DNA from: an uncultured Christensenella sp.
GTDB lineage: Bacteria; Bacillota; Clostridia; Christensenellales; Borkfalkiaceae
Length of the DNA: 64,000 bases
Direction: 5' to 3'
Assembly: GCA_910578765.1 (NCBI GenBank)
Contig: CAJTRW010000001.1
Span: forward strand, 3,386 to 67,385
This document shows, one piece after another, positions 24,993 to 46,747 of the stretch (position 1 is its first letter; each line of letters starts with the position of its first letter). Below the pieces are notes generated by a model that was given only the letters and a program-made list of their open reading frames with translations, did not search any database and was not told the origin of the DNA. The position numbers were made by a program, and so were the translations under genes.

Positions 24993-25069
24993 GCTTAAAA
25001 TATAGCAGTTACGGCTTTTAAAGTCAACACTTTACGCCGTTTACCGTCAAGCGCGTTTAAGCAAAGTAA

Positions 25070-25103
25070 CCGCGGCGCGGACAATACATTGTCCGCGCCG
25101 CGG
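25070..25103. terminator. Strong GC hairpin downstream of the pot operon
   Basis: 16-bp arms ccgcggcgcggacaat / attgtccgcgccgcgg. The T-run (ttgttttatttg) is on the plus side, so orientation is ambiguous. Confidence 0.55.
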
Positions 25104-25131
25104 TTGTTTTATTTGCTTGGAAGCAAGCAAT

Positions 25132-29693: not shown

Positions 29694-29703
29694 GTCAGTC
29701 TCC

Positions 29704-30237
29704 TTAAAAATTAGGCGGTGTGGAAATCCACAGAAATTTCGCCGTTCCGTTTCCGTTGTTTGAAATATTGTGCGACTTGTCCGCCGCATAGTAAAAGGTT
29801 TCGCCCTTTTTGCAAATATATTTCTTTTTGCCCAGCTCCAGACATATCCTGCCTTCCAAAACGTATCCGAACTCCTCTCCCTCGTGAGGGAAATCGACCG
29901 AGGTGGACGCGCCCGCCAACAGCTCAACAAGGACGGGTTCCATTTCGTTTTTCTGCGCGTTGGGTATTATCCATTTCAAAAGCATGCCGTTTTCATGCTT
30001 TTCTATGAAATCATCGGCGGAGAAAACTATGCGCGCGTCGTCCTCTTTTTTGAAAAACTCGGCAAGGTCGGTACCCAAAGCCGAAAGAATGTCGCGCAAG
30101 GTCGAGATAGACGGCTCCGTCAAATCGTTTTCAAGCTGCGATATGTAGCCCTTGGTCAGCTCGCACCGGTCGGCAAGCTCCGCCTGCGAAAGGTTTAGCT
30201 GCAGCCTCAACCGTTTTATTTTATTGCCTATATCCAT
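29704..30237 (-). CDS. XRE-family HTH plus cupin transcriptional regulator (PuuR-like)
   Basis: 177 aa. N-terminal IKRLRLQLNLSQAELADRCELTKGYISQLEN and a C-terminal cupin (HEGEEFGYVLEG) are present. Confidence 0.82.
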   Translation of the reverse strand: MDIGNKIKRLRLQLNLSQAELADRCELTKGYISQLENDLTEPSISTLRDILSALGTDLAEFFKKEDDARIVFSADDFIEKHENGMLLKWIIPNAQKNEMEPVLVELLAGASTSVDFPHEGEEFGYVLEGRICLELGKKKYICKKGETFYYAADKSHNISNNGNGTAKFLWISTPPNF

Positions 30238-30353
30238 AATAATCCTCGGGATTAGAGATTTTAAACAAAAAGTTTAATAAAAATAAACCCAAACAAGAAG
30301 ATTATATATATACAGCCCCCCTATGTCAAATATTTTTGTATAGTAATAAAAAA

Positions 30354-30375
30354 ATTCCCCGTCGAAACGGGGAAT
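30354..30375. terminator. Bidirectional terminator after the SGNH esterase gene
   Basis: Stem attccccg / cggggaat with loop tcgaaa, flanked by an A-run and a T-run. Confidence 0.7.
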
Positions 30376-30392
30376 TTTTATTTACTGATGAA

Positions 30393-32195: not shown

Positions 32196-32236
32196 ATAAT
32201 TCTCCTTAAAAAATATTTCAAACTGATAAGGATATT

Positions 32237-32276
32237 TGTGCGTTAATTCATTAACGCACAAGAGGGTACCCTCTTG
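32237..32276 (-). terminator. Two abutting hairpins right after the TIR gene stop (probable end of the island operon)
   Basis: Stems tgtgcgttaa / ttaacgcaca (32237-32260) and caagaggg / ccctcttg (32259-32276). There is no strong T-run. Confidence 0.45.
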
Positions 32277-32291
32277 CATTTCGACTTTTAA

Positions 32292-33431
32292 TTATAAATT
32301 TTTACCGAGCAGATATTTTTTGTATTTATTGTAATCTATGTCGATAACCGGTATTATGCTTGCGCAGGCGTCCACGTTTATTTGACGGTAAACGTCGTCG
32401 CTGCCCCTGTCCGCAAAAAGTATGTTGCCCTGACTGTCGCCGACAAAGAAATAACCGTCGTCTATCGAATCTGTCAGCGGCGCTTTTTCAAGCACTTCTT
32501 TCAGTTGCGGATAATTATTTTCATGCTCGGCAGCGCGCAGAAACCTGATTGCTTTGCCGTTGCCGTCCTTTTTCAGACACTCCGCAAAAGACGGTTCTAA
32601 CTCAATATGTTTTTCTTTCAGTCGCACGTCCCCTTTGTCAAGGAAAAGACCGTCGTTTATATAATCCATGACGCTTACCGCCAAGGAACGGCAAGCCGCG
32701 CCGTACAGCTCGTCTGAAACGAAAATTGCGCTAATCGTATCACCGTTATAGGCAAACACCTTCCACTCCGCATCCTGACCGTTGACCACGTTTTCAACTA
32801 TGCGGCAGGAAGTTTTTATGCGGTAATTCGCGTCTGTAAGCCCGTCCTCCGCAAGCGCGTCTATCTTGCCGCTTTCCTGCGACAGACACCCCCAGGTGGC
32901 AAACACGTCCTTTATAAGGGAATTGACAAGACCGTCGTCGTCCGTGCGCCCGAAAGCCGCCGTCTTATATATCCTGTCTTTATCGAACTTTTTTGAAAAG
33001 TGTCCCGTGCGCTCTAAAATTTTATCGAAATCCGCGGGATGCGCGCCGAGGAGCTTCTGTGTGGAAACGCTGAGAAAATTCTGCAAATTCATAGGGTCGC
33101 CGTCGCCCATAAGTACGTACGCCGTACCGAATTTTTTATGCGATTTTTCAAGACTTTCCGCCATATCGAACTCTTTGAGGCACGCCTCGCTGAAAATGAA
33201 ATCCGGACTGACAAGATATAAAATACCGCAGCAGTTTTTATTTGCCGTGACTTCCTCTACCTTTTTAAGCCAGTTCTGACCCGTTTTAAGCTCCGCGTCG
33301 TACCAAAAGTCCGCGCCATAATCGTTAAGCGCGGAAAGAAGCTTTGACACCGCTTCGCCATCCGCATGAGAATAGCTTACGAAAACGTATTTGCCGGAGG
33401 GGTTTTTTCTGCCGAGATATGTGTTGATCAT
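32292..33431 (-). CDS. TIR-domain protein with a ~230-aa uncharacterised C-terminal domain
   Basis: 379 aa. N-terminal KYVFVSYSHADGEAV...FWYDAEL..G.NW...V......CCGILYLVSPDFIFSEACLKEFDMA is a bacterial TIR pattern. The start overlaps the upstream stop (ATGA). Confidence 0.8.
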   Translation of the reverse strand: MINTYLGRKNPSGKYVFVSYSHADGEAVSKLLSALNDYGADFWYDAELKTGQNWLKKVEEVTANKNCCGILYLVSPDFIFSEACLKEFDMAESLEKSHKKFGTAYVLMGDGDPMNLQNFLSVSTQKLLGAHPADFDKILERTGHFSKKFDKDRIYKTAAFGRTDDDGLVNSLIKDVFATWGCLSQESGKIDALAEDGLTDANYRIKTSCRIVENVVNGQDAEWKVFAYNGDTISAIFVSDELYGAACRSLAVSVMDYINDGLFLDKGDVRLKEKHIELEPSFAECLKKDGNGKAIRFLRAAEHENNYPQLKEVLEKAPLTDSIDDGYFFVGDSQGNILFADRGSDDVYRQINVDACASIIPVIDIDYNKYKKYLLGKNL

Positions 33432-35857
33432 TGCTTTTCACCCTCCTTTATCACGGTCTCGTAAAATTTGGAGCACCTTATCAGTATAGGATAAGTTATC
33501 CAGCGCGTTTTTTCGAATTTCTTCGGCGCGATGTAATAATATCTTTTACTTATCTCGTACGAAAAATATGTAATGACGTTGTATTCCTTTTTTGGAAGAT
33601 ATTGCTCGCTTTCGTATACGGTGAAGGCGTTTATAGTGGTTTTATCTACGTTTACCCGACTTGAAGTATGCGTAAGAACCTGCGGGTAACAGGCAAACCT
33701 TGTACCGCCCGCGTCGTCGCCCTTGAAAAATTTCAAAAGCTCTATAACCCTGCCGATGAATTTGTCTCGTTCGCCGCGACACTGCTCCTCGTCGTCGAGG
33801 TCGCAACGGTATACGTATTCGAATCCGCCGCCGGATTTTCTTCTGCGTTCTACCAGATAGCACTTGCCGTTTTTATCGTCCATGCTTATAAACGCGCCGA
33901 GGGGTGTAAGACTTACCATCTCCCTGCCGAGCATAATGGATATTTCGGACTTCTGCTCCTCGGTGTCGTCGATAAGATTTCTGAAAAGAGTATAAAAAGT
34001 AGGCGACTGCCCCAAAACTTTAAGCTTACCGCGCACCCCCTGCATGAAAGCGAAATCTATCGCCTCCCTGCATTCCTTTACCGCCTGCGCGTTCAGCGAC
34101 GAGGTTTGTTCCGCCTTTATTTCGTAATCGAGCTGCTGGCTTGTGCAATTGGCAAGTCCCGCGTAGTAAGTTAAAATAATTTTTAAGGTGTCTCGCAACG
34201 CCGAGCGGACGTCCATAATACCGCTCATGCCGCTTATCAAATCTATTTTGTTTTGTATGCTGTAAACGTTTTCGCTGGGGCTTACGCTGTGGTCGGTCTT
34301 GTCCCTGTCCAAATTTTCGAGGCTGTACACAAGCGCGTCGGTATACGCCCTGATTTTAAAGGGCTTCAACGTCTGCGCAACCACGCCGTCATCACCGTCT
34401 ACCTCGCCGAGATTAAGGGAAAGATACTTAATAGACTCACCGTAAAACTCTTTTCTGAGTTCTTCCACTTCGACCGAGTCGAAATCCGCAAATCTTTTTT
34501 CCAGCTGACGGTTCACCTGTGAAAACAGCTCGTCATAGCTTTGGGTACCTATATATTCGAACTTAGCGAAAAGCTGAGGAAGAATTTCCTTACAGCCGAC
34601 GACAGAAAACAGAATTGTCAAAATGGATACTATATCCATATTGCTTACGCAGTCTGCTTTAAGCCTGTCCTTCGACTCGATAACCCTGTCTTCGTTACAA
34701 AGTCTGTTCCGCGCGCCGAATTTACAGCCCGCGCCGGAGCATACGCAGTCCTCTTTGCATATATTGAAGTTGTTTTTGATAACGGGCAGAATATAATTTT
34801 CCACTACGGCAAATTGCTTGTCCTTGGCAACGACGAGAATTTCAAGCGCGTCCATAACGGAGGCAGCAAGCTCGCCGTAATATTTATAGCTAGAAAGTCC
34901 GTTACAGAATGACATTCTGTGTCTTTTCCGCAACAGGTCTCCCGTTATGTAAGAGTAAATCTTACCAGTGCTGGGCGCAAGAATTATCAGTCCCCTGTCC
35001 GCCTGCGGATTTATTTCCGGAGAAAAGAAAATTTTCACCGCCTCGCTTGTGTCGTTGTCGCTAAGCCCCGTATAGTTAAGGCGCAGAACCTTGGGACCTT
35101 TTTTATTTGATAATTCTTCAATGTTTCTTAAAAGCAGAAATTTATCGCAATATTCGTTCGGCGAATATCTGACAAGCGCATATTTCGACGGATAGAAATT
35201 GTCGCCGACCTTGAAGCAGCACGGAACAACCTTTGCGTCCGCGTCCGCATATTCGCCGTCGTCGGTAATTTCAATGTCGCAGATAAACCCGAATTTTTTG
35301 AAAAGAGTATATAAAATATCGTTCGACTCCGTCATGTGCCCCTTCTTTTTGAAGGATGACTGGCGCAGCTTTTGGATATGCCTGAAAACGGAAATATATT
35401 CCTTCGTTTCGCTGTAAAAAGCGCCGCCCTTTTTTAAAACGTCGAATTTGTCGCGGAAGCTTTCGCTTGCGTCAAGCCCCAGCGCGATATTCAAAAGCAC
35501 GAAGCGCACCACGTCGTCGGTCACGTTATACGTGCTGTATAAATTGTCTGCGGCGTGCTTTATACGCGCTTCGCAATTGGATTCCGCACGGAAATCAACT
35601 GTCTTGTATAGCGCCTTGTATTTTGAAACGATGTACGCGAAAACGAGGTTGACTATACGGTTGAACATTTCCTCGCGGTAAATGGAAGCCGTTCTTAAAT
35701 TTTTTTCCAGCTTTTTCAGCTCTTTTTCGTAGTCCGAAACGAAATCCAAACCGAGTACTATCTGTCTGACGTACTTATCCTTTATCCCGCGACATAAATC
35801 AATAATTTTATCTGTGGCGTCTTTTTCTTCAAAGACGTCTGCACTTTCTAACGGCAT
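33428..35857 (-). CDS. Hypothetical 809-aa protein (no family recognised)
   Basis: Long uninterrupted ORF in operon context. The only motif noticed is the Cys cluster CKEDCVCSGAGCKFGARNRLC (about 34697-34765). Confidence 0.7.
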   Translation of the reverse strand: MPLESADVFEEKDATDKIIDLCRGIKDKYVRQIVLGLDFVSDYEKELKKLEKNLRTASIYREEMFNRIVNLVFAYIVSKYKALYKTVDFRAESNCEARIKHAADNLYSTYNVTDDVVRFVLLNIALGLDASESFRDKFDVLKKGGAFYSETKEYISVFRHIQKLRQSSFKKKGHMTESNDILYTLFKKFGFICDIEITDDGEYADADAKVVPCCFKVGDNFYPSKYALVRYSPNEYCDKFLLLRNIEELSNKKGPKVLRLNYTGLSDNDTSEAVKIFFSPEINPQADRGLIILAPSTGKIYSYITGDLLRKRHRMSFCNGLSSYKYYGELAASVMDALEILVVAKDKQFAVVENYILPVIKNNFNICKEDCVCSGAGCKFGARNRLCNEDRVIESKDRLKADCVSNMDIVSILTILFSVVGCKEILPQLFAKFEYIGTQSYDELFSQVNRQLEKRFADFDSVEVEELRKEFYGESIKYLSLNLGEVDGDDGVVAQTLKPFKIRAYTDALVYSLENLDRDKTDHSVSPSENVYSIQNKIDLISGMSGIMDVRSALRDTLKIILTYYAGLANCTSQQLDYEIKAEQTSSLNAQAVKECREAIDFAFMQGVRGKLKVLGQSPTFYTLFRNLIDDTEEQKSEISIMLGREMVSLTPLGAFISMDDKNGKCYLVERRRKSGGGFEYVYRCDLDDEEQCRGERDKFIGRVIELLKFFKGDDAGGTRFACYPQVLTHTSSRVNVDKTTINAFTVYESEQYLPKKEYNVITYFSYEISKRYYYIAPKKFEKTRWITYPILIRCSKFYETVIKEGEKQ

Positions 35858-35873
35858 AATATTTCCCTTTAAA

Positions 35874-36827
35874 TCAATTGCGTCTTATAAGCAGATTTGC
35901 AAGCTGCCTGTACTTTTCCTTTGCCATTACCTCGTCGGGGGCATCGGTGGCAAGCTTTGCAAGACAGCACTCCTGCCATTTGAACCTGTCCACCTCGGGA
36001 ATGCCGGGCACCGCGCCCTCCTGCATACCCCACGCCAGTCTGATAACTCCGCGCGTGTCGTGTGCCTTTGTATCCATTTCCTCACGGAAGCCCGCAAACA
36101 GATTGTCCTTGTAATATGCAGGATATACGTGCGTATCGATCTGCATTTCCCTGAAAGGAACCGCCGAGGGACAGAAGATTATCTTTTTCTCGTTTTTGAC
36201 CGCCGCCCATTTTGCCATAAGCTTTTCGAAGCACAGCCTTGTGCCCTTTTCGAACTGTACGGACGGGCGCATGCAGCACACTATGGTGTCCGACCTGTCA
36301 AGCGAGAAGGTAGCCATGTCCTGCGTGCCCGACGGAGTATCGAAAACGACGGTACAGTCGCATCTGTCCATGACGTCGAACGCGGCGGTTAAATTTTTGT
36401 TTTCCGGCCCCTGACCGTTCATTGCGAAAACCGTTTCCCAAAGAGCGTCCTGCTCTGCGGGGGTAACGTCGGAGCGAAGAAGAAGAACCGCCTCGTTTTC
36501 CACGTCGCGCGTAAAATAATTGCCAATGGGGATAAAATACTCGTTCAGTTTTTTATACGAGCCCCAGTCCGTCGGGTCGCCGTTATAATTGAATGTGTCG
36601 GATTTGGCGCGGACGCCGAGACCCTGCAAGGATTGCTCCGCGTCGTACTTGGCGCCGGAATCCTTTATAAGCATGGACATGCCGTAGCTTTCCGTATCAG
36701 CGTCCACTATGATAAGCGGAGATTTGCGGGTGGGCTTTTGCTCCTGAATAAGATAATAAAGGGTATTAAGCGTTGCGGTCGTTCTGCCGGAACCGCCTTT
36801 ATATGAAAAGAATGAAATAACCGACAT
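35874..36827 (-). CDS. ParA/MinD-like (SIMIBI) ATPase with a KGGSGR variant Walker A
   Basis: 317 aa. ISFFSYKGGSGRTTATLN is a deviant Walker A with Arg in place of the GK[ST] lysine. IVDADTES and a Walker B-like VVFDTPSG are present. Confidence 0.75.
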   Translation of the reverse strand: MSVISFFSYKGGSGRTTATLNTLYYLIQEQKPTRKSPLIIVDADTESYGMSMLIKDSGAKYDAEQSLQGLGVRAKSDTFNYNGDPTDWGSYKKLNEYFIPIGNYFTRDVENEAVLLLRSDVTPAEQDALWETVFAMNGQGPENKNLTAAFDVMDRCDCTVVFDTPSGTQDMATFSLDRSDTIVCCMRPSVQFEKGTRLCFEKLMAKWAAVKNEKKIIFCPSAVPFREMQIDTHVYPAYYKDNLFAGFREEMDTKAHDTRGVIRLAWGMQEGAVPGIPEVDRFKWQECCLAKLATDAPDEVMAKEKYRQLANLLIRRN

Positions 36828-36855
36828 AAAAAATTTTTCTCCTTGGTTTCCCCGT

Positions 36856-39201
36856 TTACTCCTTGTTCGACGGCACCTTTGCCGTGAGATAAGTTATAAG
36901 ATTGCGCATGAATTTAGAGCTGTCTCCCTCCGCGCCGAAAACGTTTCTGATTATTGTGCTGTGCGCGTCCTTTCTGTCCTCGGGGTCGCCGTTTTTCAAA
37001 AAAGCCACAAGCTGGGGATTGTATTCCATAGAAAGTAAGGACAAAAGCTGTAATTTTTCCGTAAGGTGCACAAGCTTGGTAAGCTTAACCGCGTCGGTAT
37101 CCTTGTCGAAGGAATTCAACTTGTCTATAACCTTTTCGCGGTTGCTTCTTTCGCCCGCTTCCAGATTGGCAAGCAGATTGTCCGCCGTAAGCTGGTCGTC
37201 TATAAGGTCTATAAGCCCGTTAGCGACGAAACCCGCTATGTCTCTGAAAAGCTTCCTTGTACGTCCGATATATTCGTCGCGCCAGGCAATTTCCTCCGCG
37301 TGCTTTTTATGCGCGGCGGAAAGCACGTTTTCGTACTTTTCGCGCTCTGCCTGCGCTGCTTTCTTTTCCTGTCTGCGCCTGTTTCTTTCGCTGTCGATAA
37401 AGGGCTCCTCATACTGCTCGTAATAGCGGTAGAAGGATATAAGCGCGTCAATGTAATAGTAGTTGGTAATTGCGTTGAAGCCGTCCTTATCCCATACCCA
37501 GCTCGACTCTCCGCCCTTGCGCTTTTTGTTGCGGATGATATCTTTTAAAGACTCCTTCATCTGCTTCTGAGGATACTGCACAACATACTGACTCATCAGG
37601 TTGTTGTTTTTAAGCATAAGGGGCAGAAGCGGAACCGCCGCTATATTGACTTTTCTGAGCTGTTTGGCAAGCTCGGAATTGGTGTCGTCCACCTTGTCGG
37701 AAAAGTCAAGTATATAGCTGTCTATTTTATATAAAAGTCCTTCGTTCTCGATCTCGTTATAACAGCGCTGCGTATTCTGTATAGCTATCTGGAAGGTGTT
37801 CAGCATTTTTTCGTATTCTTCGGGGTCGTTTACGGAAAGCTCATAATCGTACGCCGAATTCAATATTATGCCTATTACGAAAAGATTGTTGAAAAACGCG
37901 TTGTTGTGGCTGGAAAGCCTTACCGTATCCATGTCGACGAGAGTACCGTCCTCGTAACAGGGGCCCTTGGACATATTGACCTTAAAAGGCGTTTTTGTTT
38001 TCAGGTTGCCGAAGCCCTCGTTCCACAGACTTTCCGCAAGAGAGACGGAGGCTTCTTTCAATACAGTGAAAGCGCCGTCTGCGCCGTCCTCGTCCGCCCT
38101 GTACGTCAGCGGCTGCCCGGCGTTGATTGCGTTATAAAGCAGGTCAAGCTCTTTTAAAGAGTCCGCGGAAAGGTTGGAAAGGAAGTCCGCAAATTCGTCG
38201 AACCCGTCGCGTTTAAGGCGCTGCACCGTCTTTTCAAGCGAGGCCGGGTTGGTCAGCCCATGATAAAATTTAAAGTGCGCGACGGTGTCGCCCGAGGCCG
38301 AAAGCTGCTTTTCGAAGCGTCTTAATTTGCCGACAATATCAGCGCCGCAATCGAACCGTTTAAAAAGCCCCAGATAGACCGTCGACGCAACGTAAGAGAA
38401 ATATAACGAAGGCTCTGCCCCGCTCATCTTCCTGAACGACCAGCCCGCCACTTTTCCATCGCGACGGACTATGCAGTCGCACGTGATTCTGATACATTCG
38501 AGATACAGCGCGCGGACAGCCTTTTCCACTTCCTCAGCGGAAAGTGTTTCGTCCGCGGTATAAACCCTGTCGCCCTTTATTTCCCATTTGATTTTAGCGT
38601 ATTCTTCGGGGGCTACCCTTTTCATGCGGGCAAGGAAGCTTTCAACCGAGTCCGCGGCAAGGAACACCCAGCTTGCGCTGTCCAAATAGCCGCCCGTATC
38701 CCAACGAAGCCCTTCCGTCGCGGTGGTGTCGTCGTAAAAAGGCATACTGGAAAGAAGTATTCTTCCGCCCGACTTAACGCCCGAAGGGAAGCACTCGGCA
38801 AGCAGCTTGCAGACCGAATTTACAATTACGTTCAGTGTAGAGGGCTTGCCTTCCGTAAGCATTTCGGCAAAAGTTACACCTTCCGCCCCCTCCTCCTTTT
38901 CGTCCTCCAATAAGGAAATCTCTAACAGAAGCGCGGAGAGCGACGGGGCTATGGAAAGCACCCCCACCTCCTGCATTTCGTCGGAAAGGAAAAGTCCCTC
39001 GTCTGCGAGAGCGCGGCGCGTTCTTCTGTCGCCCGAACGGTATCCGTTAGCTATAAGGTCTTTAATCCACTCCCTTGCCGCAACTCTTTTGCTTTTGAAT
39101 TTTCTGAATATGCCGCTCTCTCCGCCGGCTTCCGCAAGACCGTCGAACTCGTCCGCGGCATTATAATTCTTTTCGCTCAATTTCTCTCTCTCCTTTATCA
39201 T
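36856..39201 (-). CDS. Hypothetical 781-aa, largely alpha-helical protein (no family recognised)
   Basis: Long ORF 11 nt after the radical SAM stop. It is rich in helix-like W/Y segments (ASWVFLAADS, SLYFSYVASTVYLGL, WVWDKDGFNAITNYYYIDALISFY) and has a coiled-coil tail. Confidence 0.7.
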   Translation of the reverse strand: MIKEREKLSEKNYNAADEFDGLAEAGGESGIFRKFKSKRVAAREWIKDLIANGYRSGDRRTRRALADEGLFLSDEMQEVGVLSIAPSLSALLLEISLLEDEKEEGAEGVTFAEMLTEGKPSTLNVIVNSVCKLLAECFPSGVKSGGRILLSSMPFYDDTTATEGLRWDTGGYLDSASWVFLAADSVESFLARMKRVAPEEYAKIKWEIKGDRVYTADETLSAEEVEKAVRALYLECIRITCDCIVRRDGKVAGWSFRKMSGAEPSLYFSYVASTVYLGLFKRFDCGADIVGKLRRFEKQLSASGDTVAHFKFYHGLTNPASLEKTVQRLKRDGFDEFADFLSNLSADSLKELDLLYNAINAGQPLTYRADEDGADGAFTVLKEASVSLAESLWNEGFGNLKTKTPFKVNMSKGPCYEDGTLVDMDTVRLSSHNNAFFNNLFVIGIILNSAYDYELSVNDPEEYEKMLNTFQIAIQNTQRCYNEIENEGLLYKIDSYILDFSDKVDDTNSELAKQLRKVNIAAVPLLPLMLKNNNLMSQYVVQYPQKQMKESLKDIIRNKKRKGGESSWVWDKDGFNAITNYYYIDALISFYRYYEQYEEPFIDSERNRRRQEKKAAQAEREKYENVLSAAHKKHAEEIAWRDEYIGRTRKLFRDIAGFVANGLIDLIDDQLTADNLLANLEAGERSNREKVIDKLNSFDKDTDAVKLTKLVHLTEKLQLLSLLSMEYNPQLVAFLKNGDPEDRKDAHSTIIRNVFGAEGDSSKFMRNLITYLTAKVPSNKE

Positions 39202-39212
39202 TTGTTACTTTA

Positions 39213-40313
39213 TTAAGGGTGTTTGTATTTGAATTCGCCGCCGAAACGGGCATAGTCGCCGCCTATTTTAGCGTATATGTATCTAAGCGGCTCGCACACG
39301 GTTTTTTTGATAGTAAACAAATCGCCGCGTTCGTTCAAAGTTTCGCCAAGACAAAAGCCCGCGCAATGCTCCCGCGCGATACAGTCTCGACATTCGGGAA
39401 GATTGTCCAGCGTCCTGCTCTGTAAAACGTCTATCTTCTTTTTATCGTAAATTATACGGTTGTTTTCTTTATCGTACTTGCCGTAGATAAACGCATCCAT
39501 CTGTGCGGCGTTTTCGCCGCTTGTACACATTTCGCAGGCGGAAACGTAACCGTCCATGGTCAGGTGCGGCATAGGCAGGCAAGAGCGGCAATTATAACAC
39601 GTTGGACCGTCGAAGTTGGTGGTGAAGTTGCTTTCGTAAAAAACCCCGCGCGTTTTGCCGTATTCCCTCGCCTCTATAAACCTGCGCGCAAAATGCATAT
39701 TGTCTATCGGCTCGAAAGTCTTATCCTCCGTCTCGCTGACGGGCGCGAAAATGGGGTCGACCCAGATATGCTTTATACCCAGCGACAAAAGATAGTCAAT
39801 GCCCTCCTTTTGCCTGTCTATATTGTACGGCGTAATAGTACTGCGCACGCCGACCATGGCGCGCTTGTTTTCGAGGTTTTTGAAATATTTCAGGTTGCGC
39901 TCTATAACGGCGGACGTAGGTTTTCCGCTGACCGTCACGCGGAACATGTCGTGCGTTTCGGGAAGCAAGTCCATGGACACCCAGATTTCGTCCATGTTAT
40001 AAGCCAGCCACTCCGCAAGGCGGGGGTTGAAAAACCCGTTAGTCTGTATTTCGCAGTTTACATCCGGTTTGAATTTCCTTGCGTACGCGCATATTTGTTT
40101 TATAAGCTCCGGCTCGGTCGTGGGTTCGCCGTCGCCGAAAAATCTTATTCCGTTCACTACGCCCGTGGCGACGTACTCGTCTATCCCGCACTTCGCAAAG
40201 TCCAAATCCAAAACGGTATATTTGGCTTTGCGCGCGCCGTAACAGTATTTGCACGCCATATTGCAACGCGACGTAAGCAGAAACGATATTATTCTTTTGT
40301 TACAGTAAGGCAA
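39213..40313 (-). CDS. Radical SAM enzyme with a C-terminal SPASM domain
   Basis: 366 aa. CNMACKYC is the CxxxCxxC cluster. The C-terminus has CYNCRSC...ACEMC and CRDCIAREHCAGFC (CxxCx5Cx3C). The apparent start is TTG at 40313, after GGGAGGA. Confidence 0.85.
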   Translation of the reverse strand: MPYCNKRIISFLLTSRCNMACKYCYGARKAKYTVLDLDFAKCGIDEYVATGVVNGIRFFGDGEPTTEPELIKQICAYARKFKPDVNCEIQTNGFFNPRLAEWLAYNMDEIWVSMDLLPETHDMFRVTVSGKPTSAVIERNLKYFKNLENKRAMVGVRSTITPYNIDRQKEGIDYLLSLGIKHIWVDPIFAPVSETEDKTFEPIDNMHFARRFIEAREYGKTRGVFYESNFTTNFDGPTCYNCRSCLPMPHLTMDGYVSACEMCTSGENAAQMDAFIYGKYDKENNRIIYDKKKIDVLQSRTLDNLPECRDCIAREHCAGFCLGETLNERGDLFTIKKTVCEPLRYIYAKIGGDYARFGGEFKYKHP

Positions 40314-40359
40314 ACAATCCTCCCGCGCGGCGTAAAGCCGAGTTAAAGTTACGAAAAAA

Positions 40360-40388
40360 ATTATACAACAAATTTATACGCAAGTCAA
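40360..40388 (-). promoter_or_regulatory. Promoter of the radical-SAM-to-TIR operon, TTGACT-17 nt-TATAAT
   Basis: Minus-strand reading is ccgTTGACTtgcgtataaatttgttgTATAATttttttcg, about 40 nt upstream of the start codon. Confidence 0.7.
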
Positions 40389-40420
40389 CGGTTACGGCAA
40401 ATAATCGGGGCATAAAAACG

Positions 40421-42601
40421 TCATACGCGCTTAACTATTTTAAACCCGCAGCGCGTTAACAGCCAATAGGCGTCGTCCATTAACTGATAGTCGTATTTTA
40501 TAACGTCGGTTTCGTTTTCGTCAAGGTTATCCCTTTCGGCAATAATGCGCCTGAACTCCGCCAGCCCGTCGAAGGTGGTGATATTCCCGTGGCGGCGCAG
40601 GTTATAGTTTTTGCCGTCGGTGAAAACGGTCCTGCCGTTCTTTACGGTCGTTTCGTTGAGTATTTGCTGTTTATCGGCGGGTATTACGCCCTTCGACAGC
40701 ATGAAAGCGTTCCACCTGTAATGCTCGGATACTGCCAGATTTTTTCTCTTGGATTCGGGAAAATCCAGCGTGTAATTAATAATTTTTTTGCCGTCCGCCG
40801 TGACGGAATCATATCGCGCGTCGGGCGCGTCTCCGTCGGCGTAGACCTGCATATATTCGCTTTCGGAAAGTGCGGGCAGCGCACTGTCCTCCGCGTCGCA
40901 ATAGTCCAACCCCAGCATATTCAACTTGGAACGCAGACTGAGACAGCAATACAGACTCGACTCCCTTTCGAGACTGGATTTTTCCGTAAACCACTTTTTC
41001 TCGGCAACCAGGCGGCACTCCGCAAGGCTTTGCTCGGTCGGGGTGAAAGCCGCGTCCGTCGTAATTCTTTTTTCCAGCTCGTATATATAATCGCGCAGCT
41101 TTGCCATGCGTGAAATTTTGTCGTCCGTAATCTGCTCTATGTCGTAAACGTCGGATTTCTCGTCGCCTATCGGGTAACAGTTTTCCCCCGTGACAAGCTT
41201 GCCGTATCTCTCCGCATCGCGCACCTTGACGAATATCGCGACGTCGCTCAAGCCCCACTCCGCGCGCTTTTCCGTAAGCTTGCAGGCAAGGTCTATGTTT
41301 TCGAGATCGGTACCGAAAGATATTATTATGAAGCCGACGCCGTTTTTACACGACGCCGCCTTTCTTATATCGCTGTAAAAGTCGGGGCTGTTGACGTCAA
41401 GATGCCTGTATTCCTCTATTGCGGGCAGAGGCGGCAACGGCAGATAATCCACCGCGTCCGCGTCCGGAAATTCGTTTTTAAAACGGTAATAAGTATGATT
41501 GAGGTTTTTGTTTTCTTCGGACGAATTTTTATCGAATATAAAGTATTTGACGGGCTTTACGGAAAGACACTTCCCGTCGCGGCAGAGGAACTGGTTGTTT
41601 GCCACAGAAGCGAGGAATATCCTGCGGTTGGCGTTGCCGAAGCCTATCAGACAGACGTTTATTTCCGTTTGCTTTTTGACAAGCGCGGTTTCGTAATCGA
41701 TGTGCCGCCCGTCCATAAAAGAAGATAAAGGATATCTGTCGGTAAAGCGCGCCGCAAGCATGAGATACTTGTTTTTGTATTGAATACAGCCCGCCGACTG
41801 CGCAACCGCCTGACCGTAAACAGCCTCATGTGCGGGATCGCCGAAAACGTAGACGCGCAGGCGGCACCGTTCTTTGCCTGACGTAACGGCTTTGTTCGTT
41901 TGCTCGTTGAAAAGGCGGCATATATTCAGGTTTTTTCCGTCGTCGCCGGTATTTATCACAATCGTACTATCAGCGCCGTCTCCGCCTATCCGCCGCATTA
42001 TGCCGCACACGGCGGCTTCGTAATTTTTAAGATTTATGTAATTAATCTTCTTGCGGTAAAGGAAAAGTCTGTCCTCCGCCGAAAGACCGTCTACTATCAA
42101 TGCCGCGTAGCGCCCCGCGCTTTTGTAAACGTTGATGTTGTCTTTGTTATAACCGAAGATATACAGTTTGGGTTTGCGGCTGAAACGCAGATAAATCGAG
42201 CTTGCAAAACGCCGTATCTGCTGGCTTGTAAGCGAAAACGTAAACAGCAGCGCGTTTAACAGGACGAGTATACAGCAGTAGTAAACCGTTATTTTATAGA
42301 ACAGGTCCGCTTTCATCAGGGCGGATATATCCGACAGACTGTATTTAAGTACGACAAGGTTTACGGTGTTGCCCACCGCTTTGAAAAACGCCGTTAAAAA
42401 ATCCGCGCCGCCGTACATGAAGCCTATGCAGAAAAGAGGTATGGCCAGTACAAGCACTACGGCGCACTTGCCTTTTTTAAAGCTTCTCAGATAAGCTATC
42501 CTGTCCTCCCTGTTCTTTACCGCGAAGCTGACCGCCGTATAAATAACCGCGACGGTCAGTAAAGTAAAGCATATTGCCGTGACAACGTTGTAAGCCGCCA
42601 T
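40421..42601 (-). CDS. Membrane protein: N-terminal TM helices, two Rossmann-like segments and a C-terminal EHxRW (RyR-like) module
   Basis: 726 aa with about 4 TM helices in the first 130 aa. KLYIFGYNKDN and INVCLIGFGNANRR are beta-Gly-rich starts. The C-terminus has LAVSEHYRWNAFMLSKG. Confidence 0.6.
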   Translation of the reverse strand: MAAYNVVTAICFTLLTVAVIYTAVSFAVKNREDRIAYLRSFKKGKCAVVLVLAIPLFCIGFMYGGADFLTAFFKAVGNTVNLVVLKYSLSDISALMKADLFYKITVYYCCILVLLNALLFTFSLTSQQIRRFASSIYLRFSRKPKLYIFGYNKDNINVYKSAGRYAALIVDGLSAEDRLFLYRKKINYINLKNYEAAVCGIMRRIGGDGADSTIVINTGDDGKNLNICRLFNEQTNKAVTSGKERCRLRVYVFGDPAHEAVYGQAVAQSAGCIQYKNKYLMLAARFTDRYPLSSFMDGRHIDYETALVKKQTEINVCLIGFGNANRRIFLASVANNQFLCRDGKCLSVKPVKYFIFDKNSSEENKNLNHTYYRFKNEFPDADAVDYLPLPPLPAIEEYRHLDVNSPDFYSDIRKAASCKNGVGFIIISFGTDLENIDLACKLTEKRAEWGLSDVAIFVKVRDAERYGKLVTGENCYPIGDEKSDVYDIEQITDDKISRMAKLRDYIYELEKRITTDAAFTPTEQSLAECRLVAEKKWFTEKSSLERESSLYCCLSLRSKLNMLGLDYCDAEDSALPALSESEYMQVYADGDAPDARYDSVTADGKKIINYTLDFPESKRKNLAVSEHYRWNAFMLSKGVIPADKQQILNETTVKNGRTVFTDGKNYNLRRHGNITTFDGLAEFRRIIAERDNLDENETDVIKYDYQLMDDAYWLLTRCGFKIVKRV

Positions 42602-42620
42602 TTTTTACCTCTGTGAAAAT

Positions 42621-44903
42621 TTATCTGAAACAGTCTATAAAGTGAATTGTTTCGTTATCCTTTAAGCCGCGCTTGCGGGCAATATCTATGCAGTGATACG
42701 TGCCGCCGCGGTTTATGGGATTGTTGTCCCTGTCGTGAAGGGGAAGCTCTTTGCCGTCCCATACGGCGATTAGCCTGTCGCATTTTTCTATAAGATATTT
42801 TCCCGACTCGTAGTAAGTATAAACGGGGTCCGGCACGACCTTGCACACTACGGCAAGGGCTAAAAGATGCCTCAGGTGCAACACCTCATTTTCCGTCATA
42901 GGGTTGCCGTGCGTTTGCCTGTCGCCGATAACGTCCCTTATGTGCTGTTCGTACTCCATTGGCAGGACGGCTTTGGTTGTAAGGTTAAGCTCGTCGGCGC
43001 ACTCGGCTATGAGTATATCCGCCCCGTTAGCGTAACACGTCCTGACTATGACGCGGTATTCCTCGGCATATTTTTTCAAAATAGCTTTTATTTTTTCTTT
43101 AATCAAATTTCTCGTAGCGGGGTCGGTGTCCTCGGTAAAGTATCTGTGACCCGTACCCGCAATTACCAAATCCTCCTTCCTGCCGGAGCGGTAATTATAT
43201 ATCTTTATGCCGCTGTTGAATTTTTTCAAAAGCGGTATTATGTTGCGAATCATTAAAACGTCCTTGCTTTTTTCGCTTTCGGAAAGCGCTTCGTACGGCA
43301 CTATGGACTTGTGGATTTTTTTACAGTTTCTCTCCTCCGCGGTTTTGTAATCGGTTCCGTAGCGCCAGCCGAGGTTAAGCTTTTCCCTGACCCAGCGCAA
43401 ATGCTCCTCGCGCGCGAGAAACTCCACGTTTCTCGCCCCCCGGTTCCCGAGGCGGCAGTCGTTAAAGTCGTCCACAACGGGATAGTCTAAATTTTTACTG
43501 CTGTAAAAGCAGTTTATAAGCTCCAGCTTGTAAGAGTAAGATTTTGCCTGTTCGATATTGGATACCTTATATTCCAGCGGCAATTCCGCAAAGGAACAAT
43601 TCAGATGGTCGATATTATAGTCCAGACAGTGCTTTATGTAACTTGCGTGTATCGCCTTGGCGAAGTCGCAAAGATTTATGAAGTTATCCTCTGAAGCGTA
43701 TAAATAGGATTTCTTTTTCTTCGTCCTTTCCGCCGCCGAAGCGTCCAGCCGCAAATCGGATTTTATAAAGCTTTTTATCGCTTTGACGAAATCTCCGTCC
43801 TGTATATCGTTAAAGCTTTTATTGGGACGCTTCTTTAAAAACCCGTCGGAATAATCGTCTACGGAATAACTTTCGAATATATACCGCGCGGAAATATAAT
43901 CGTCGGAAACCGTAAGCTCTACGTCCCAGGCTATGGGGTCGCATTTGCTCGCCTTGCCGTAAGCAAGCCTGTCCCAGTTCTGCAATTCGTCGCAGAGAAT
44001 GAGAAGGTACGCAAGGGGATGCTCGTTTAATTCAATCGGATGTGCATTTTCTATTTCGTATTTATTCAGACTGTTGTGAAGAAGTATCGCCGTCAGTACA
44101 TCCAGCCTTTCCGCGTCTAAAACAAGCCCGTCGTTTTCAAACAGGCTTTTCGCAAGAATGACCGCACTGAAATAGCCGTGGTCCATAAATTTCGGCTGGC
44201 GTTCCACGCGCGTTTTCAACTTTCCGCAAACATAGTCGAAGTCGTACCCCTCGCGCTTTTGCAGCCCGTAAGATAAAAGCTCGTTAACGGACGAAAAGGT
44301 CCTGTCGGCTTTCAAACTTTCTCTTATGCGCTTACCCGTTGCGTCGTCTAATTTTAAAAACCCGTCCATATTGCCGAACGAAACGTAGGGTTTTTCGCCG
44401 CCTTCCCACAGCTCGCCCGCGTAGACTTTAAGTTGCTCGTGCGCAAGTTGGAAGGGATAACCCACGTCGTGGAAAAGCGAAACGGTACCCCATAGACGCA
44501 AAAATTTTTCCGCCGCCTCGCCGCCCGTAACTTTATAAAAATTATCGAACGCGGAACGCAGCTTCCCGTCGTGCGCGTACATCGCCAGACCCAAAGCGAA
44601 AACGTAAACCGAATGCGAATAATGGTCGCGGTGTTTGGACAGCAGCTCGCCGGAATGATATTCGTGGTCGGAAAGAGTTTCCAATAGCTTTTGCGTGTTC
44701 TCGTAACCGCTGCCGAAAAGCTTGAAAATCTCACTGAAACAAAAATAGACGACGAATGCGTCCGCCTTTTTGCCGCTTTTTAAAAACGCTTCCGTAGCTT
44801 TGCGAAAACAGGTCATTTCGTTTTTCGGGATTTCGCCGCCGTTGCCGCAACGGTTTTCCATCATATCGAAATAGCCGCCGCATAGTTGTAACAATGTGTT
44901 CAT
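42621..44903 (-). CDS. HD-domain / RyR-domain / SLOG-like three-domain protein
   Basis: Start set at MNTLLQL (ATG 44903, AAAGGTGA RBS). HD: HRDHYSHS...LFHDVGYP. RyR: LAREEHLRWVREKLNLGWRYG...HKSIVPYEALSESEKSKD. C-terminus: VIAGTGHR...YANGADILIAECA...IAVWDG...NRGGTYHCI (LOG/SLOG-like). Confidence 0.7.
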   Translation of the reverse strand: MNTLLQLCGGYFDMMENRCGNGGEIPKNEMTCFRKATEAFLKSGKKADAFVVYFCFSEIFKLFGSGYENTQKLLETLSDHEYHSGELLSKHRDHYSHSVYVFALGLAMYAHDGKLRSAFDNFYKVTGGEAAEKFLRLWGTVSLFHDVGYPFQLAHEQLKVYAGELWEGGEKPYVSFGNMDGFLKLDDATGKRIRESLKADRTFSSVNELLSYGLQKREGYDFDYVCGKLKTRVERQPKFMDHGYFSAVILAKSLFENDGLVLDAERLDVLTAILLHNSLNKYEIENAHPIELNEHPLAYLLILCDELQNWDRLAYGKASKCDPIAWDVELTVSDDYISARYIFESYSVDDYSDGFLKKRPNKSFNDIQDGDFVKAIKSFIKSDLRLDASAAERTKKKKSYLYASEDNFINLCDFAKAIHASYIKHCLDYNIDHLNCSFAELPLEYKVSNIEQAKSYSYKLELINCFYSSKNLDYPVVDDFNDCRLGNRGARNVEFLAREEHLRWVREKLNLGWRYGTDYKTAEERNCKKIHKSIVPYEALSESEKSKDVLMIRNIIPLLKKFNSGIKIYNYRSGRKEDLVIAGTGHRYFTEDTDPATRNLIKEKIKAILKKYAEEYRVIVRTCYANGADILIAECADELNLTTKAVLPMEYEQHIRDVIGDRQTHGNPMTENEVLHLRHLLALAVVCKVVPDPVYTYYESGKYLIEKCDRLIAVWDGKELPLHDRDNNPINRGGTYHCIDIARKRGLKDNETIHFIDCFR

Positions 44904-44943
44904 AAATTCACCTTTTCTCTTACGGCAAAAAACCGCTTTGTTT

Positions 44944-44972
44944 ATTATATCACTAAAAACGCGCGCCGTCAA
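44944..44972 (-). promoter_or_regulatory. Promoter of the HD-RyR-SLOG transcription unit, TTGACG-17 nt-TATAAT
   Basis: Minus-strand reading is aatatTGACGgcgcgcgtttttagtgaTATAATaaac. The -10 lies at 44949-44944 and the -35 at 44972-44967. Confidence 0.7.
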
Positions 44973-44998
44973 TATTCGCCGCGGAATATCTTGCGGCA

Positions 44999-45027
44999 TT
45001 GACATTAATTGCGTTTAGTGTTATAAA
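44999..45027 (+). promoter_or_regulatory. Divergent promoter of the 550-aa membrane protein gene, TTGACA-17 nt-TATAAA
   Basis: TTGACA at 44999-45004, 17-nt spacer, TATAAA at 45022-45027. RBS ggagag precedes ATG 45060. Confidence 0.65.
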
Positions 45028-45059
45028 ATAAGCATATCAAAAATAACGGAGAGAATATT

Positions 45060-46712
45060 ATGATTTACGAGCTGGAATATGTAAACAAAAGGTACGACGA
45101 AATTATAAAAGAAGTCGACTTCGTAAACAATAAGGGCACAGACCCGCAATCCTTATTTATCTATATAAAAGGTTGCGGTTTGCTGTCGAATATAAAGACT
45201 TATTTTGTTTATGCAAAATTGTTAAAAAAACTAAAAAAGTTAATGACTTTAAGCGGATATATGCTTGATTATCATGAAAGTTATAAAAGCAACTCCGTCG
45301 GCAAAAAGCAATTGAAACAAAGAAAAAAAGCAGGAAAATATTTTTCAAAGAAAAAAGATAATATAGACGCCGACTACTCGCAAGAAAAAGACGAAAGAGA
45401 TCCCGACGAAATCATTGCGGACCTGAAAGAAATCAGAGAAAATATAGCGCAGCTTATAGTTAAAATAGAGCCTCTGTTAAAGAGCCTTAGGGAATATTTA
45501 TTCAACACGGTCATTATTGCGTTTATGCCGTTTACCGTTGTAGGCTATGCTTTGCTGACAAGCTTTTTAAAAAACAACGCCGTAGACGTTACGGCAACCG
45601 TCACGGCATTCGTATGCTGGTCGGGATATTTAGCCGCAAGAGCGGTATACCTTATAAAATTTACGCGTTACTACAAGTTGGACGGGAAAGCCGCTTGCAT
45701 TAAATTGATGTATCACCTGTCCGCAATTTTTACATATTTTTCGATAGACCTGCTGTTCTGCCTTACTTGCTTCGGTTGCGGCGATTTGCCTGCCGCCGTG
45801 TTGTTGCTGATATTATGCGGCGTTTTCATTTTTACATTTTTATACGATATTTTCTGCTCGTCGAAATTTTTTATAGGCGAACTCGGGTACTGTTCGTTTG
45901 TCGTTTTGGCGGGCGCGGTACTGTGCGTTATTCTTTTCGCCGTCGAAAACGTTATAATTTCCCGAATAGTTTCGGGGTTTTTGATTTCGGTTGAAATAGG
46001 ACTTCTGCTGATAATATTCAAGGCGTTTATTATAGAGCAAAGGAAAATCGAAACCTTAGTGCAAATAATATGTATAATAATAATCGTGCTTATGAGTATC
46101 TGCATAGGCGCGGTGTTGATTTACCGCTTTACCTGGGTTTCCCCCACGGAAGGAAAACCTGCCGACAATACTCTTTTCAGCGCCGTAATGGGCATATATG
46201 CCGCGCTTATCGGCGGAGTTCTTACTTTCACGGGCGTGGCCTGGACTATACGGCACAACGAACAACAGCGTAAAGCAGACGAAAAAATGCGAGTAAGACC
46301 TTATTTGGTCAATAGCAGTTATAGCAACAATCACCCTATTTATCCCTTGCTGTTCAAAAATTTTTCGAATGAAAACGAGGAACCGCTCATAATTAAAAAA
46401 ATATACGTTTATGTAACCGATGCGGCGGACTGTATCTTTCTCGGACTTATGACGAAAGAAAAATTTTTCCCTATGGACGGAGAGATTTATACAAAACGCA
46501 ATTCTTACCATGCTACCGTAGAATTGCGTTTACCGCAAAATACACGTTTGGATAAAACTTACCTGATAGTAAAAGATTTGCTTGATAATTTGTATAAATT
46601 CGAATGTAAGCTTGAAGCTTGCGAGGACGGCAAATATCAATGCGTCGACATAGGAATACCCGAAGAACTTGACAAAAACCGGCTTCAACTAATAAATTCC
46701 GATAAACAATAA
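45060..46712 (+). CDS. Hypothetical multipass membrane protein (soluble N-terminus, ~8 TM, soluble C-terminal domain)
   Basis: 550 aa and the only plus-strand gene in the region. It is visibly AT-rich and I recognise no family. Confidence 0.65.
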   Translation: MIYELEYVNKRYDEIIKEVDFVNNKGTDPQSLFIYIKGCGLLSNIKTYFVYAKLLKKLKKLMTLSGYMLDYHESYKSNSVGKKQLKQRKKAGKYFSKKKDNIDADYSQEKDERDPDEIIADLKEIRENIAQLIVKIEPLLKSLREYLFNTVIIAFMPFTVVGYALLTSFLKNNAVDVTATVTAFVCWSGYLAARAVYLIKFTRYYKLDGKAACIKLMYHLSAIFTYFSIDLLFCLTCFGCGDLPAAVLLLILCGVFIFTFLYDIFCSSKFFIGELGYCSFVVLAGAVLCVILFAVENVIISRIVSGFLISVEIGLLLIIFKAFIIEQRKIETLVQIICIIIIVLMSICIGAVLIYRFTWVSPTEGKPADNTLFSAVMGIYAALIGGVLTFTGVAWTIRHNEQQRKADEKMRVRPYLVNSSYSNNHPIYPLLFKNFSNENEEPLIIKKIYVYVTDAADCIFLGLMTKEKFFPMDGEIYTKRNSYHATVELRLPQNTRLDKTYLIVKDLLDNLYKFECKLEACEDGKYQCVDIGIPEELDKNRLQLINSDKQ

Positions 46713-46716
46713 ATTA

Positions 46717-46747
46717 CGCCCGTCCGCTTTTACGGACGGGCGTTTTT
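46717..46747. terminator. Bidirectional terminator between convergent genes
   Basis: Stem cgcccgtccg / cggacgggcg with loop ctttta, followed by TTTTT. Confidence 0.8.

Follow-up and report, generated by a model that had tools for sequence, protein, structure and literature searches.

A conserved TIR operon with RyR-domain partner genes in an uncultured Christensenella: a candidate undescribed signalling system related to Thoeris

The subject of this work is an island of genes at positions 32292-46712 of a 64,000-nucleotide stretch (referred to here as the window) of contig CAJTRW010000001.1, assembly GCA_910578765.1, from an uncultured Christensenella sp. Seven minus-strand genes of the island encode, in the direction of transcription, two proteins with RyR domains (760 and 726 aa), a radical SAM/SPASM enzyme (rSAM), a 781-aa protein which we call A, a ParA/MinD-like ATPase, an 809-aa protein which we call B, and a TIR-domain protein. 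Our reading, in which we place about even confidence, is that this locus is a conserved and undescribed TIR-based signalling system of the conflict or immune type, with a five-gene signal-generating core and two RyR-domain effector or receiver genes; as such it probably counts as an elaborate new relation of Thoeris, the anti-phage system. This reading is supported by the strict synteny of the core in close as well as distant loci, by RyR-domain partners beside about 15 of 17 cores (and one RyR-TIR fusion), and by the invariant Glu of the TIR domain and the retained H/W/H/D ligand residues of the RyR domain. Further support comes from the experimentally documented ability of PF02026 proteins to bind or cleave isomers of cyclic ADP-ribose (cADPR), and from a swapping of effector modules typical of signalling defence systems (HD-RyR; transmembrane-RCK-RyR; a transporter fusion; weakly SLATT-like proteins). 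Finally, it is supported by sister operons which sit among conjugative and defence-like genes, and by an independent operon with TIR, rSAM/SPASM-like and HD genes that adjoins an integrase on a Parabacteroides plasmid.

The core order rSAM-A-ATPase-B-TIR was found by tblastn to be the same in all close relatives, in differing genomic surroundings, and it persists in distant loci where A is only 24-30% identical. B falls into only 24 clusters, all at least 54% identical, among 5.8 billion proteins, and is present in 6 of 185,579 GTDB species, these being Christensenellaceae and Clostridia metagenome-assembled genomes. For A, a deep hidden Markov model search gave only 193 clusters among 1.84 billion representatives. 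Distant ATPase homologues (28-32% identity) pointed to related operons, in all of which an A profile detects the protein encoded directly upstream of the ATPase (E 6e-54 to 4e-27), and a metagenome scan with a closer subset of the alignment as query yielded 22 more loci. After annotation and clustering there were 34 non-redundant loci holding A, many of them on truncated contigs, and in every sufficiently complete related locus among them the core order holds. The ATPase was present in 30 of these 34 loci, B in 26, the TIR family in 21 (with three long TIRs in addition) and rSAM in 20; the 726-aa family was present in 12 and the 760-aa family in 7. This arrangement is far beyond chance, and the five genes are a co-inherited module. 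An earlier interpretation of the window, made without any database search (the sequence-only reading), had proposed a multi-gene unit whose homologues should be co-localised in other genomes, and the six GTDB species together with about 20 metagenomic loci bear this out. The family is rare, occurring only in uncultured gut Clostridia and further metagenomic lineages, and surveys of isolates would therefore have missed it. In the distant loci rSAM is 51-59% identical, as against 29-34% for the ATPase, 24-30% for A, 19-23% for B and about 25% for TIR. Since rSAM is so much better kept than A, B and TIR, the pattern of rates fits diversifying sensor or effector parts around a conserved enzyme.

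The two genes upstream of the core belong to the same picture. In the 760-aa protein the RyR domain (PF02026) is recognised with E 2e-10 and 41.1 bits against a gathering score of 27.4; it aligns with the R12 repeats of animal ryanodine receptors and with a Bacteroides RyR-like protein (E 3e-12), and the H/W/H/D ligand positions are kept. Its HD domain is weak (Pfam E 0.013, with an H..HD motif), its motifs being conserved in the HD-RyR homologues of loci L012 and L029. For the C-terminal domain we obtained YAcAr at E 0.15 only, and a five-member profile searched against the PDB gave, as its best and weak match, the Rossmann domain of S-adenosylhomocysteine hydrolase (E 0.027). Pfam scans of five members of the family returned no SLOG family, and the C-terminal pattern GxGHR...GAD..AE...WDGK...GGT is only suggestive of SLOG. 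Thus, of the HD-RyR-SLOG architecture proposed for this protein, the RyR domain stood, the HD domain stood weakly, and the SLOG domain was not confirmed. The 726-aa protein, when scanned alone, had no family match. It has three to four N-terminal hydrophobic helices (hydropathy segments 1-29, 41-69 and 100-127), followed by a TrkA-N/RCK-like domain of the nucleotide-binding kind: TrkA_N matches 4 of 11 members of the family (best E 1.9e-5), and the family profile matches TrkA (3l4b) in the PDB with E 0.0024. Its C-terminus, with the motif LA..EH.RW..GW...H.CITTF.GL, lies below the Pfam threshold and aligns with the RyR domain in hhalign (Prob 96.7%, E 3.9e-10). This agrees with the proposed order of transmembrane, Rossmann and RyR-like parts.

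Of 17 rSAM-type loci in which the core is complete and the flanks are usable, about 15 have a gene for an RyR-domain protein beside the core; its position varies, and sometimes it is on the opposite strand. These neighbours take the form of HD-RyR, HD-RyR-Rossmannoid and transmembrane-RCK-RyR proteins, a 98-aa stand-alone RyR domain, and an N-terminal fusion of RyR to TIR (L012). The 760-aa family lies beside the core in 7-8 loci and the 726-aa family adjoins it, upstream or downstream, in 12, one of its members being a fusion with a CitMHS/ArsB-type transporter. Among the 34 loci we saw no further gene family beside the core with a similar frequency. We thus take the two upstream genes to be real recurrent partners and not chance neighbours, in agreement with the evolutionary link between the two transcription units suggested earlier, and on these alignments RyR (R12) appears to be the domain that links them to TIR. 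Paralogous membrane proteins of 688-716 aa are also encoded beside the core in two loci (L012:886-5239 and L028:6089-8176); the one of these that was scanned (L012:886-2952) has a weak SLATT_3 match (E 4e-4), and they may be alternative membrane effectors.

A TIR_2 domain was recognised by Pfam at residues 16-137 of the TIR protein (E 2e-13). Its E87, in the motif CLKEF, is a catalytic-type Glu and is invariant in 14 diverse homologues; because this residue is kept, the protein probably cleaves NAD+. The C-terminal domain of about 240 aa has no Pfam match in any of the 14 members, and NCBIfam gave no match to the protein at E<=0.01. TIR is the last core gene in all close loci and, at 44-57% identity among close relatives, the least conserved one. 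In a strain of the window organism (L045:8848-9988) the TIR gene is split into open reading frames (ORFs) of 303 and 67 aa in an otherwise intact operon, which may be a loss-of-function allele that arose naturally or else a fault of the assembly.

The following mechanism could be proposed. TIR would cleave NAD+, as its invariant Glu suggests, under the control of a complex of the ATPase, A and B, in which the Arg-for-Lys ATPase would serve as a nucleotide switch and which would license TIR upon sensing a trigger, presumably phage infection. The product would be a cADPR-type nucleotide, bound by the RyR (R12) domains of both partner proteins. Binding might then switch on the HD phosphohydrolase, leading to degradation of nucleic acids or nucleotides, and the membrane TrkA-N/RCK protein, leading to an ion leak; the outcome would be growth arrest or abortive infection. 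The RyR step draws on phage proteins of family PF02026, which bind 2'cADPR, 3'cADPR and cADPR at nanomolar affinity or cleave them by means of these conserved residues (PMC13232231; 10.64898/2026.06.04.730250). Both sources are preprints of 2026, and neither describes host-encoded RyR-domain effectors.

The locus thus resembles Thoeris in some respects and departs from it in others. Both have a TIR protein with a catalytic Glu (PADLOC matched the window protein to ThsB with E 2e-8), and in both it is linked to variable effectors (putative ones at the window locus) in which a nucleotide-binding domain is joined to a toxic module such as a membrane protein or a hydrolase. The ion-channel effector of type X Thoeris is a precedent, and some window-type loci have SLATT-like neighbours. 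However, Thoeris (types I-IV and V-XI) is essentially a compact arrangement of one or more TIR genes and one effector, with TIR as the sensor, whereas the window TIR belongs to a fixed operon of five genes. As putative sensor domain there is RyR/R12 and not SLOG, Macro or another described domain, and there is no ThsA-type protein. The producer and receiver logic of Thoeris, on which the sequence-only reading relied, therefore remains the best reading of the locus, with the amendment that the linking domain is RyR in both upstream proteins and not SLOG. A survey of Thoeris types V-XI (bioRxiv 10.64898/2025.12.03.692087) mentions no rSAM, ParA or RyR-domain effector. RyDEP (PMC13232231) and RyR Tad (10.64898/2026.06.04.730250) share with the window proteins the PF02026 domain, the H/W/H/D residues and the tie to TIR-made cADPR isomers, but they are small phage sponges or glycosidases that shut immunity down. 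In contrast, the RyR domains described here are encoded by the host, in fusion with HD, TrkA-N/transmembrane, transporter or TIR modules and in linkage with a TIR operon of the host, which suggests a receptor or regulator role on the side of defence. PADLOC matched only TIR, the rSAM core and the P-loop, with no system-specific component, and in the full-text literature we found no published description of the system and no report that combines SPASM, anti-phage activity and TIR. The unit is in this sense undescribed, as had been supposed.

The ATPase has the Walker A sequence SYKGGSGRTT, in which Arg replaces the P-loop Lys, and so does not carry the KGGxGK[ST]T motif with the catalytic Lys of the ParA/MinD/Soj type; the switch I Asp residues and the Walker B sequence FDTPSG are kept. 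The motifs SYKGG[SA]GR[ST][ST], DxDxxSxG, FD[TS]P.G.Q and CCMRP..QF are conserved in nearly all 29 homologues (the first of them in 28, the remaining one having KGGSCR), and we therefore regard the Arg-for-Lys substitution as a fixed functional feature and not as decay. The best NCBIfam match is NF047398 AAA_KGGVGR (E 1e-13; 52 bits against a cut-off of 90); ParA_partition reaches 26 bits against a cut-off of 180, and the best PDB match is Soj, with E 0.032. A literature search found no paper mentioning KGGVGR. This type corresponds to the inactive MinD/ParA-like domains of VMAP ternary conflict systems (Kaur et al. 2020, PMC7159879). Such systems share with the window locus a ParA/MinD-like P-loop with Arg for the Walker A Lys and, often, TIR domains; they differ in that the window ATPase stands alone between A and B and that vWA-MoxR-VMAP components are absent.

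Proteins A and B are genuine orphan families, with no match in Pfam, NCBIfam or PADLOC. Against PDB sequences, B gave no match at E<=1 with a close-family profile and none that was significant with a broad profile; for A nothing was significant with either, the close profile returning three RAP-domain chains at E 0.05-0.25. AlphaFold2 models were of moderate quality (predicted local distance difference test 72.6 for B and 68.4 for A; predicted TM-score 0.65), and Foldseek found no match at E<0.001 for B in the PDB and BFVD or for A in the PDB. The 550-aa membrane protein at the edge of the island also has no family match. In all, the locus holds three protein families without a described relative. 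A resemblance of A to an (alpha/alpha)6 barrel was considered, but at E 0.08 and a TM-score of 0.16-0.3 it was not relied on. A is modelled as all-alpha with a helix of about 90 residues, has the conserved motifs YPQKQM, WxWxxDGY and NYYYxxAxxxFYxYYxxYE, and is encoded directly upstream of the KGGxGR ATPase in every variant; it serves as the marker of the whole superfamily of systems. In the predicted structure of B helices dominate, alongside two small beta modules. Conservation in B is strongest in the C-terminal module, YP.V.T...D...I..ILTEF.Y.IN..YY..PN...WW..P, which is modelled at very low confidence, and distant B homologues hold the same position in operons with rSAM, agmatinase or GNAT. 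In the close clade B also has an invariant Cys cluster (C367, C371, C373, C378, C387 and C403), in a low-confidence part of the model and missing in distant B; it could be a clade-specific metal site. Both segments were considered as substrates of rSAM and both were rejected, the C-terminal tail being equally conserved in operons without rSAM and the Cys-rich segment (residues 367-403) being confined to the close clade.

The radical SAM enzyme belongs integrally to the core and is under strong constraint. Pfam recognises Radical_SAM with E 2e-12, and the best NCBIfam match, covering the whole profile, is of the PapB type (E 5e-30), every family being below its cut-off. The enzyme has the CX3CX2C motif (C17/C21/C24) and a C-terminal Cys-rich domain, as expected of a radical SAM/SPASM protein. 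In 19 homologues the three Cys of the motif are invariant, as are eight further ones (C242, C245, C260, C308, C311, C317, C321 and C340), and 100 of the 366 positions, including 12 Cys, are invariant altogether, which makes this the most conserved gene of the operon. On one hand, the enzyme could make or tailor a small molecule (the signal or a co-substrate) and not mature A or B, a role that we favour only weakly. It is favoured because the features of a cluster with an rSAM/SPASM maturase of ribosomally synthesised peptides with post-translational modifications (RiPPs) are missing: there is no RiPP recognition element (RRE), the cluster motif starting at residue 17 and leaving no N-terminal domain, and no short precursor gene, as neither a peptide ORF in the 107-nt leader of the operon nor a conserved small ORF upstream of the core at other loci was found. 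It is also favoured because rSAM is far more conserved than its fast-evolving protein neighbours, because small-molecule enzymes replace it in sister operons, and because another operon with TIR and rSAM includes a kinase. On the other hand, maturation of a full-length defence protein is also possible, as shown by HXS, where rSAM is integral to a defence operon and modifies a full-length anti-phage effector (PMC13128918). HXS differs from the window locus in being periplasmic and devoid of TIR or ATPase; HxsA and HxsD are absent from the window, and the matches to HxsB (59 bits against a cut-off of 370) and HxsC (34 bits against 268) are low. Prokaryotic viperins (pVip) likewise combine a radical SAM core with a defence-like setting (PADLOC pVip E 1e-11), but the match is not full-length, covering residues 9-191 only, and viperins are without the SPASM domain, with its two sets of auxiliary-cluster Cys, that the window enzyme carries.

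In the sister operons the enzymes change around an invariant A-ATPase-(B) unit. Five of them (L013-L016 and L018) encode TIR, agmatine deiminase (E 3e-92), A, the ATPase, a short B and a protein similar to S-adenosylmethionine decarboxylase (AdoMetDC). L017 encodes agmatinase (178 bits, above the cut-off), A, the ATPase, B and the AdoMetDC-like protein, followed by an unrelated 506-aa protein, and has no TIR; L019 encodes TIR, A, the ATPase, B and a GNAT protein. Because it is known that homologues of AdoMetDC have turned into decarboxylases of arginine or ornithine (PMC10407285), the sister operons with an AdoMetDC-like gene plausibly encode a route from arginine to agmatine and on to putrescine or N-carbamoylputrescine. 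We found no paper combining TIR with agmatine enzymes. The sister loci lie among genes for TraG, ClpP, TIR-TPR, SbcCD-like, ASCH, metallophosphatase and ADP-ribosylglycohydrolase proteins, and some of the operons are on islands resembling conjugative elements. Four distant loci, rSAM-type ones among them, have a glutamate-5-kinase-like (AA_kinase) gene upstream of rSAM or A (L032:522-1349, L033:384-1232, L036:686-1513 and L039:1998-2873), and in the last of these a LoaP-type NusG antiterminator (L039:1452-1997; 134 bits, above the cut-off) precedes the whole operon. When the 760-aa protein was compared with plasmids by tblastn, one weak match, to the HD domain only, led to an operon adjoining an integrase on Parabacteroides distasonis plasmid NZ_OY725812.1 (45648-50806; L042). 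It encodes hypothetical proteins of 166 and 213 aa, a TIR protein of 161 aa, a nucleotide-kinase-domain protein, an rSAM of the PqqE/SPASM-like kind and an HD protein of 521 aa that shows homology (E 6e-12) with the HD domain of the 760-aa window protein, and is apparently a second undescribed combination of TIR, rSAM and HD.

A number of observations speak against a TIR-based immune signalling system. No homology explains what A, B, the ATPase and rSAM do. Two well-flanked loci, L001 and L011, have no nearby RyR-domain protein, so that such partners are not obligatory. The RyR-domain proteins known so far are sponges or hydrolases of phages, the host receptor role is extrapolated from them, and the domain could equally degrade a signal. 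The neighbours of the island in the window are pectin-degradation genes, and the flanks of rSAM-type loci are mostly housekeeping genes and not defence islands; an immune role is thus suggested by domain logic and not by context. No integrase was found at the island, as had been noted before. A had no match by tblastn in the plasmid and phage collections (nor had the 726-aa protein in the plasmid collection). A strain without the island was sought by means of the flanking genes and none was found: all contigs with the product of the adjacent GDSL/PelX-like gene carry the island, and the product of the GH28 gene on the other side was without record. Finally, the agmatine and polyamine enzymes of the sister systems, together with LoaP in one locus, hint at metabolite biosynthesis.

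These points bear on the alternatives to different degrees. One could assume that TIR is a terminal effector which kills by NAD+ depletion, with no diffusible signal, and that the RyR proteins are accessory regulators (an off-switch, self-protection or NAD+ salvage) like RyDEP. The position of TIR as the last and least conserved core gene agrees with this, as do L017, which has no TIR and ends its operon at the 3' side with an unrelated protein, the full loci L001 and L011 without RyR partners, and the retention in the RyR domain of H and D, the catalytic dyad of RyDEP. Still, RyR is fused to effector-like HD, transmembrane-RCK and transporter modules, which is hard to fit to a pure scavenger, and the partner modules vary in the manner of swapped effectors; we find it unlikely that no signal is involved. 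Another idea is that the locus serves a non-immune pathway for a modified nucleotide, an amine metabolite or a modified protein, in which TIR would act in NAD+-dependent ADP-ribosyl donation or base exchange, rSAM in tailoring, and the membrane RCK-RyR protein in export or sensing. It gains from the exchange of rSAM for agmatinase, for agmatine deiminase with the AdoMetDC-like protein (a potential arginine or ornithine decarboxylase) or for GNAT, from the glutamate-5-kinase-like genes and LoaP, from the housekeeping flanks, and from the transporter fusion in the 726-aa family. Such a pathway is distinctly unlikely in our judgement, as the distribution is very sparse and patchy (see the counts for A and B above), divergence among the non-enzyme components is rapid, partner genes are variable, the combination of TIR and RyR matches known immune signalling, and sister loci occur on conjugative or defence-like islands.

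The separate strong promoters at 44972 and 40388, and related loci that have the core and no RyR genes, might indicate that the RyR gene pair and the TIR operon are two unrelated systems lying side by side. However, RyR recurs by the core across deep divergence, in varied positions and orientations and once fused to TIR, and in frequency no other family comes near it, which makes such an accident very improbable. The actinobacterial FxSxx-COOH systems (FxsA/FxsB/FxsC/FxsT) also have, by the NCBIfam/TIGRFAM definitions of their families, rSAM/SPASM, TIR-like and NTPase proteins in one cluster, an analogy raised by the sequence-only reading. A Firmicute version of them, or a RiPP or sactipeptide-type cluster with a peptide-maturing rSAM, would have a similar composition in outline, and the best NCBIfam matches of the rSAM are indeed to peptide maturases, of the PapB, QhpD and SCIFF types. 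But the analogy failed in every feature that was compared: there is no Fxs model among the best 25 of 61 NCBIfam matches of the rSAM, no NCBIfam match for TIR, no NB-ARC/TPR protein at the window locus and no FxSxx C-terminus among the seven proteins (they end in LGKNL, GEKQ, IRRN, SNKE, YKHP, VKRV and DCFR), the A and B families are unrelated, and the phylum is another one. With the RRE, a leader ORF and conserved small upstream ORFs missing as well, we consider this explanation barely credible.

Returning to the TIR-RyR signalling system, a more ambitious version of it could be formulated, although we regard it as doubtful. The locus would represent a new class of TIR immunity in which host RyR (R12) domains read cADPR-type messengers made by TIR and gate TrkA-N/RCK and HD effectors, and thus a prokaryotic counterpart, possibly the ancestor, of the long-debated animal axis of cADPR and the ryanodine receptor. 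The messenger or a co-substrate would be tailored by interchangeable enzymes (rSAM/SPASM, the agmatine route or GNAT), under an Arg-finger-type ParA-like switch and two new sensors. If the signalling system is real, it would place RyR/R12, which the two 2026 preprints describe only as an anti-Thoeris sponge or hydrolase of phages, on the host side of TIR signalling, and would provide a testable bacterial model of the action of cADPR-type ligands on RyR proteins, an open question for animal ryanodine receptors. It would also mean that a multi-protein ATPase machine, with a radical SAM enzyme among its parts, can control the activation of TIR, unlike in the self-contained ThsB sensors, and would add A and B as new protein families along with a functional clade of ParA-like ATPases that have Arg for Lys. 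The sister operons would in that case tie TIR systems to agmatine and polyamine enzymes, which hints at new messengers derived from ADP-ribose or at metabolic immunity.

The layout of the window locus is given in Table 1. ORFs were taken from a program-made list, and all those previously noted were found at the coordinates claimed, as were the head-to-tail arrangement of the seven genes and the distances between them, which from the TIR end to the 760-aa end are -4, 16, 28, 11, 107 and 19 nt. The core promoter predicted in the sole long gap was likewise recovered, and a GGGAGG ribosome-binding site lies 5 nt ahead of the rSAM start codon. The second promoter falls within a mechanical ORF of 794 aa (42621-45005). 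Homologues of its product align only from about residue 25-35, and the start at 44903 (M35) proposed for the 760-aa protein is therefore correct. Public gene calls give rSAM as a 348-aa protein starting at M19, which drops C17, the first Cys of the cluster motif. As residues 4-17 do not vary among 19 homologues, the true start is the TTG at 40313, and gene calling by automated means places the start of this rSAM family wrongly.

Table 1. Features of the island, in window coordinates
Feature	Coordinates	Strand	Remarks
TIR protein, 379 aa	32292..33431	-	last core gene
Protein B, 809 aa	33428..35857	-	orphan family
ParA/MinD-like P-loop ATPase, 317 aa	35874..36827	-	variant Walker A
Protein A, 781 aa	36856..39201	-	orphan family; marks the system superfamily as a whole
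Radical SAM/SPASM enzyme, 366 aa, TTG start	39213..40313	-	Pfam, NCBIfam
Sigma-70-type promoter of the five-gene core, TTGACT-17-TATAAT	40360..40388	-	11/12 matches
Membrane partner, 726 aa	40421..42601	-	transmembrane + TrkA-N/RCK-like + divergent RyR
Soluble partner, 760 aa	42621..44903	-	HD + RyR + Rossmann-like
Sigma-70-type promoter with extended TG, TTGACG-17-TATAAT	44944..44972	-	11/12 matches; upstream of the two RyR-domain genes
Multi-pass membrane protein, 550 aa	45060..46712	+	outside the system

The 550-aa membrane protein had been counted as an eighth member, and this did not hold. It has about eight hydrophobic segments and a GC content of 40%, and no homologue of it occurs in any related locus. 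A 99.5%-identical metagenomic contig (L020) is without window positions 45066-46564 and keeps a 3' remnant of the gene, which is thus strain-variable and not part of the system. Between it and the GH28 gene lies a perfect bidirectional terminator hairpin (46716-46743). At the other end of the island a gene for a GDSL/PelX-like pectin acetylesterase (30393-32279, minus strand) begins only 12 nt past the TIR stop codon, and the operon and this gene may share a transcript. Other loci do not conserve it, and most of it (window positions 30357-31962) has no match in contig L021. Two genes away from the island there is an ABC transporter operon (24900-30240, minus strand) with an HTH-cupin regulator, whose binding protein (25132-26598) is named spermidine/putrescine-binding by one source; its proximity is probably coincidental, though notable given the polyamine enzymes of the sister systems.

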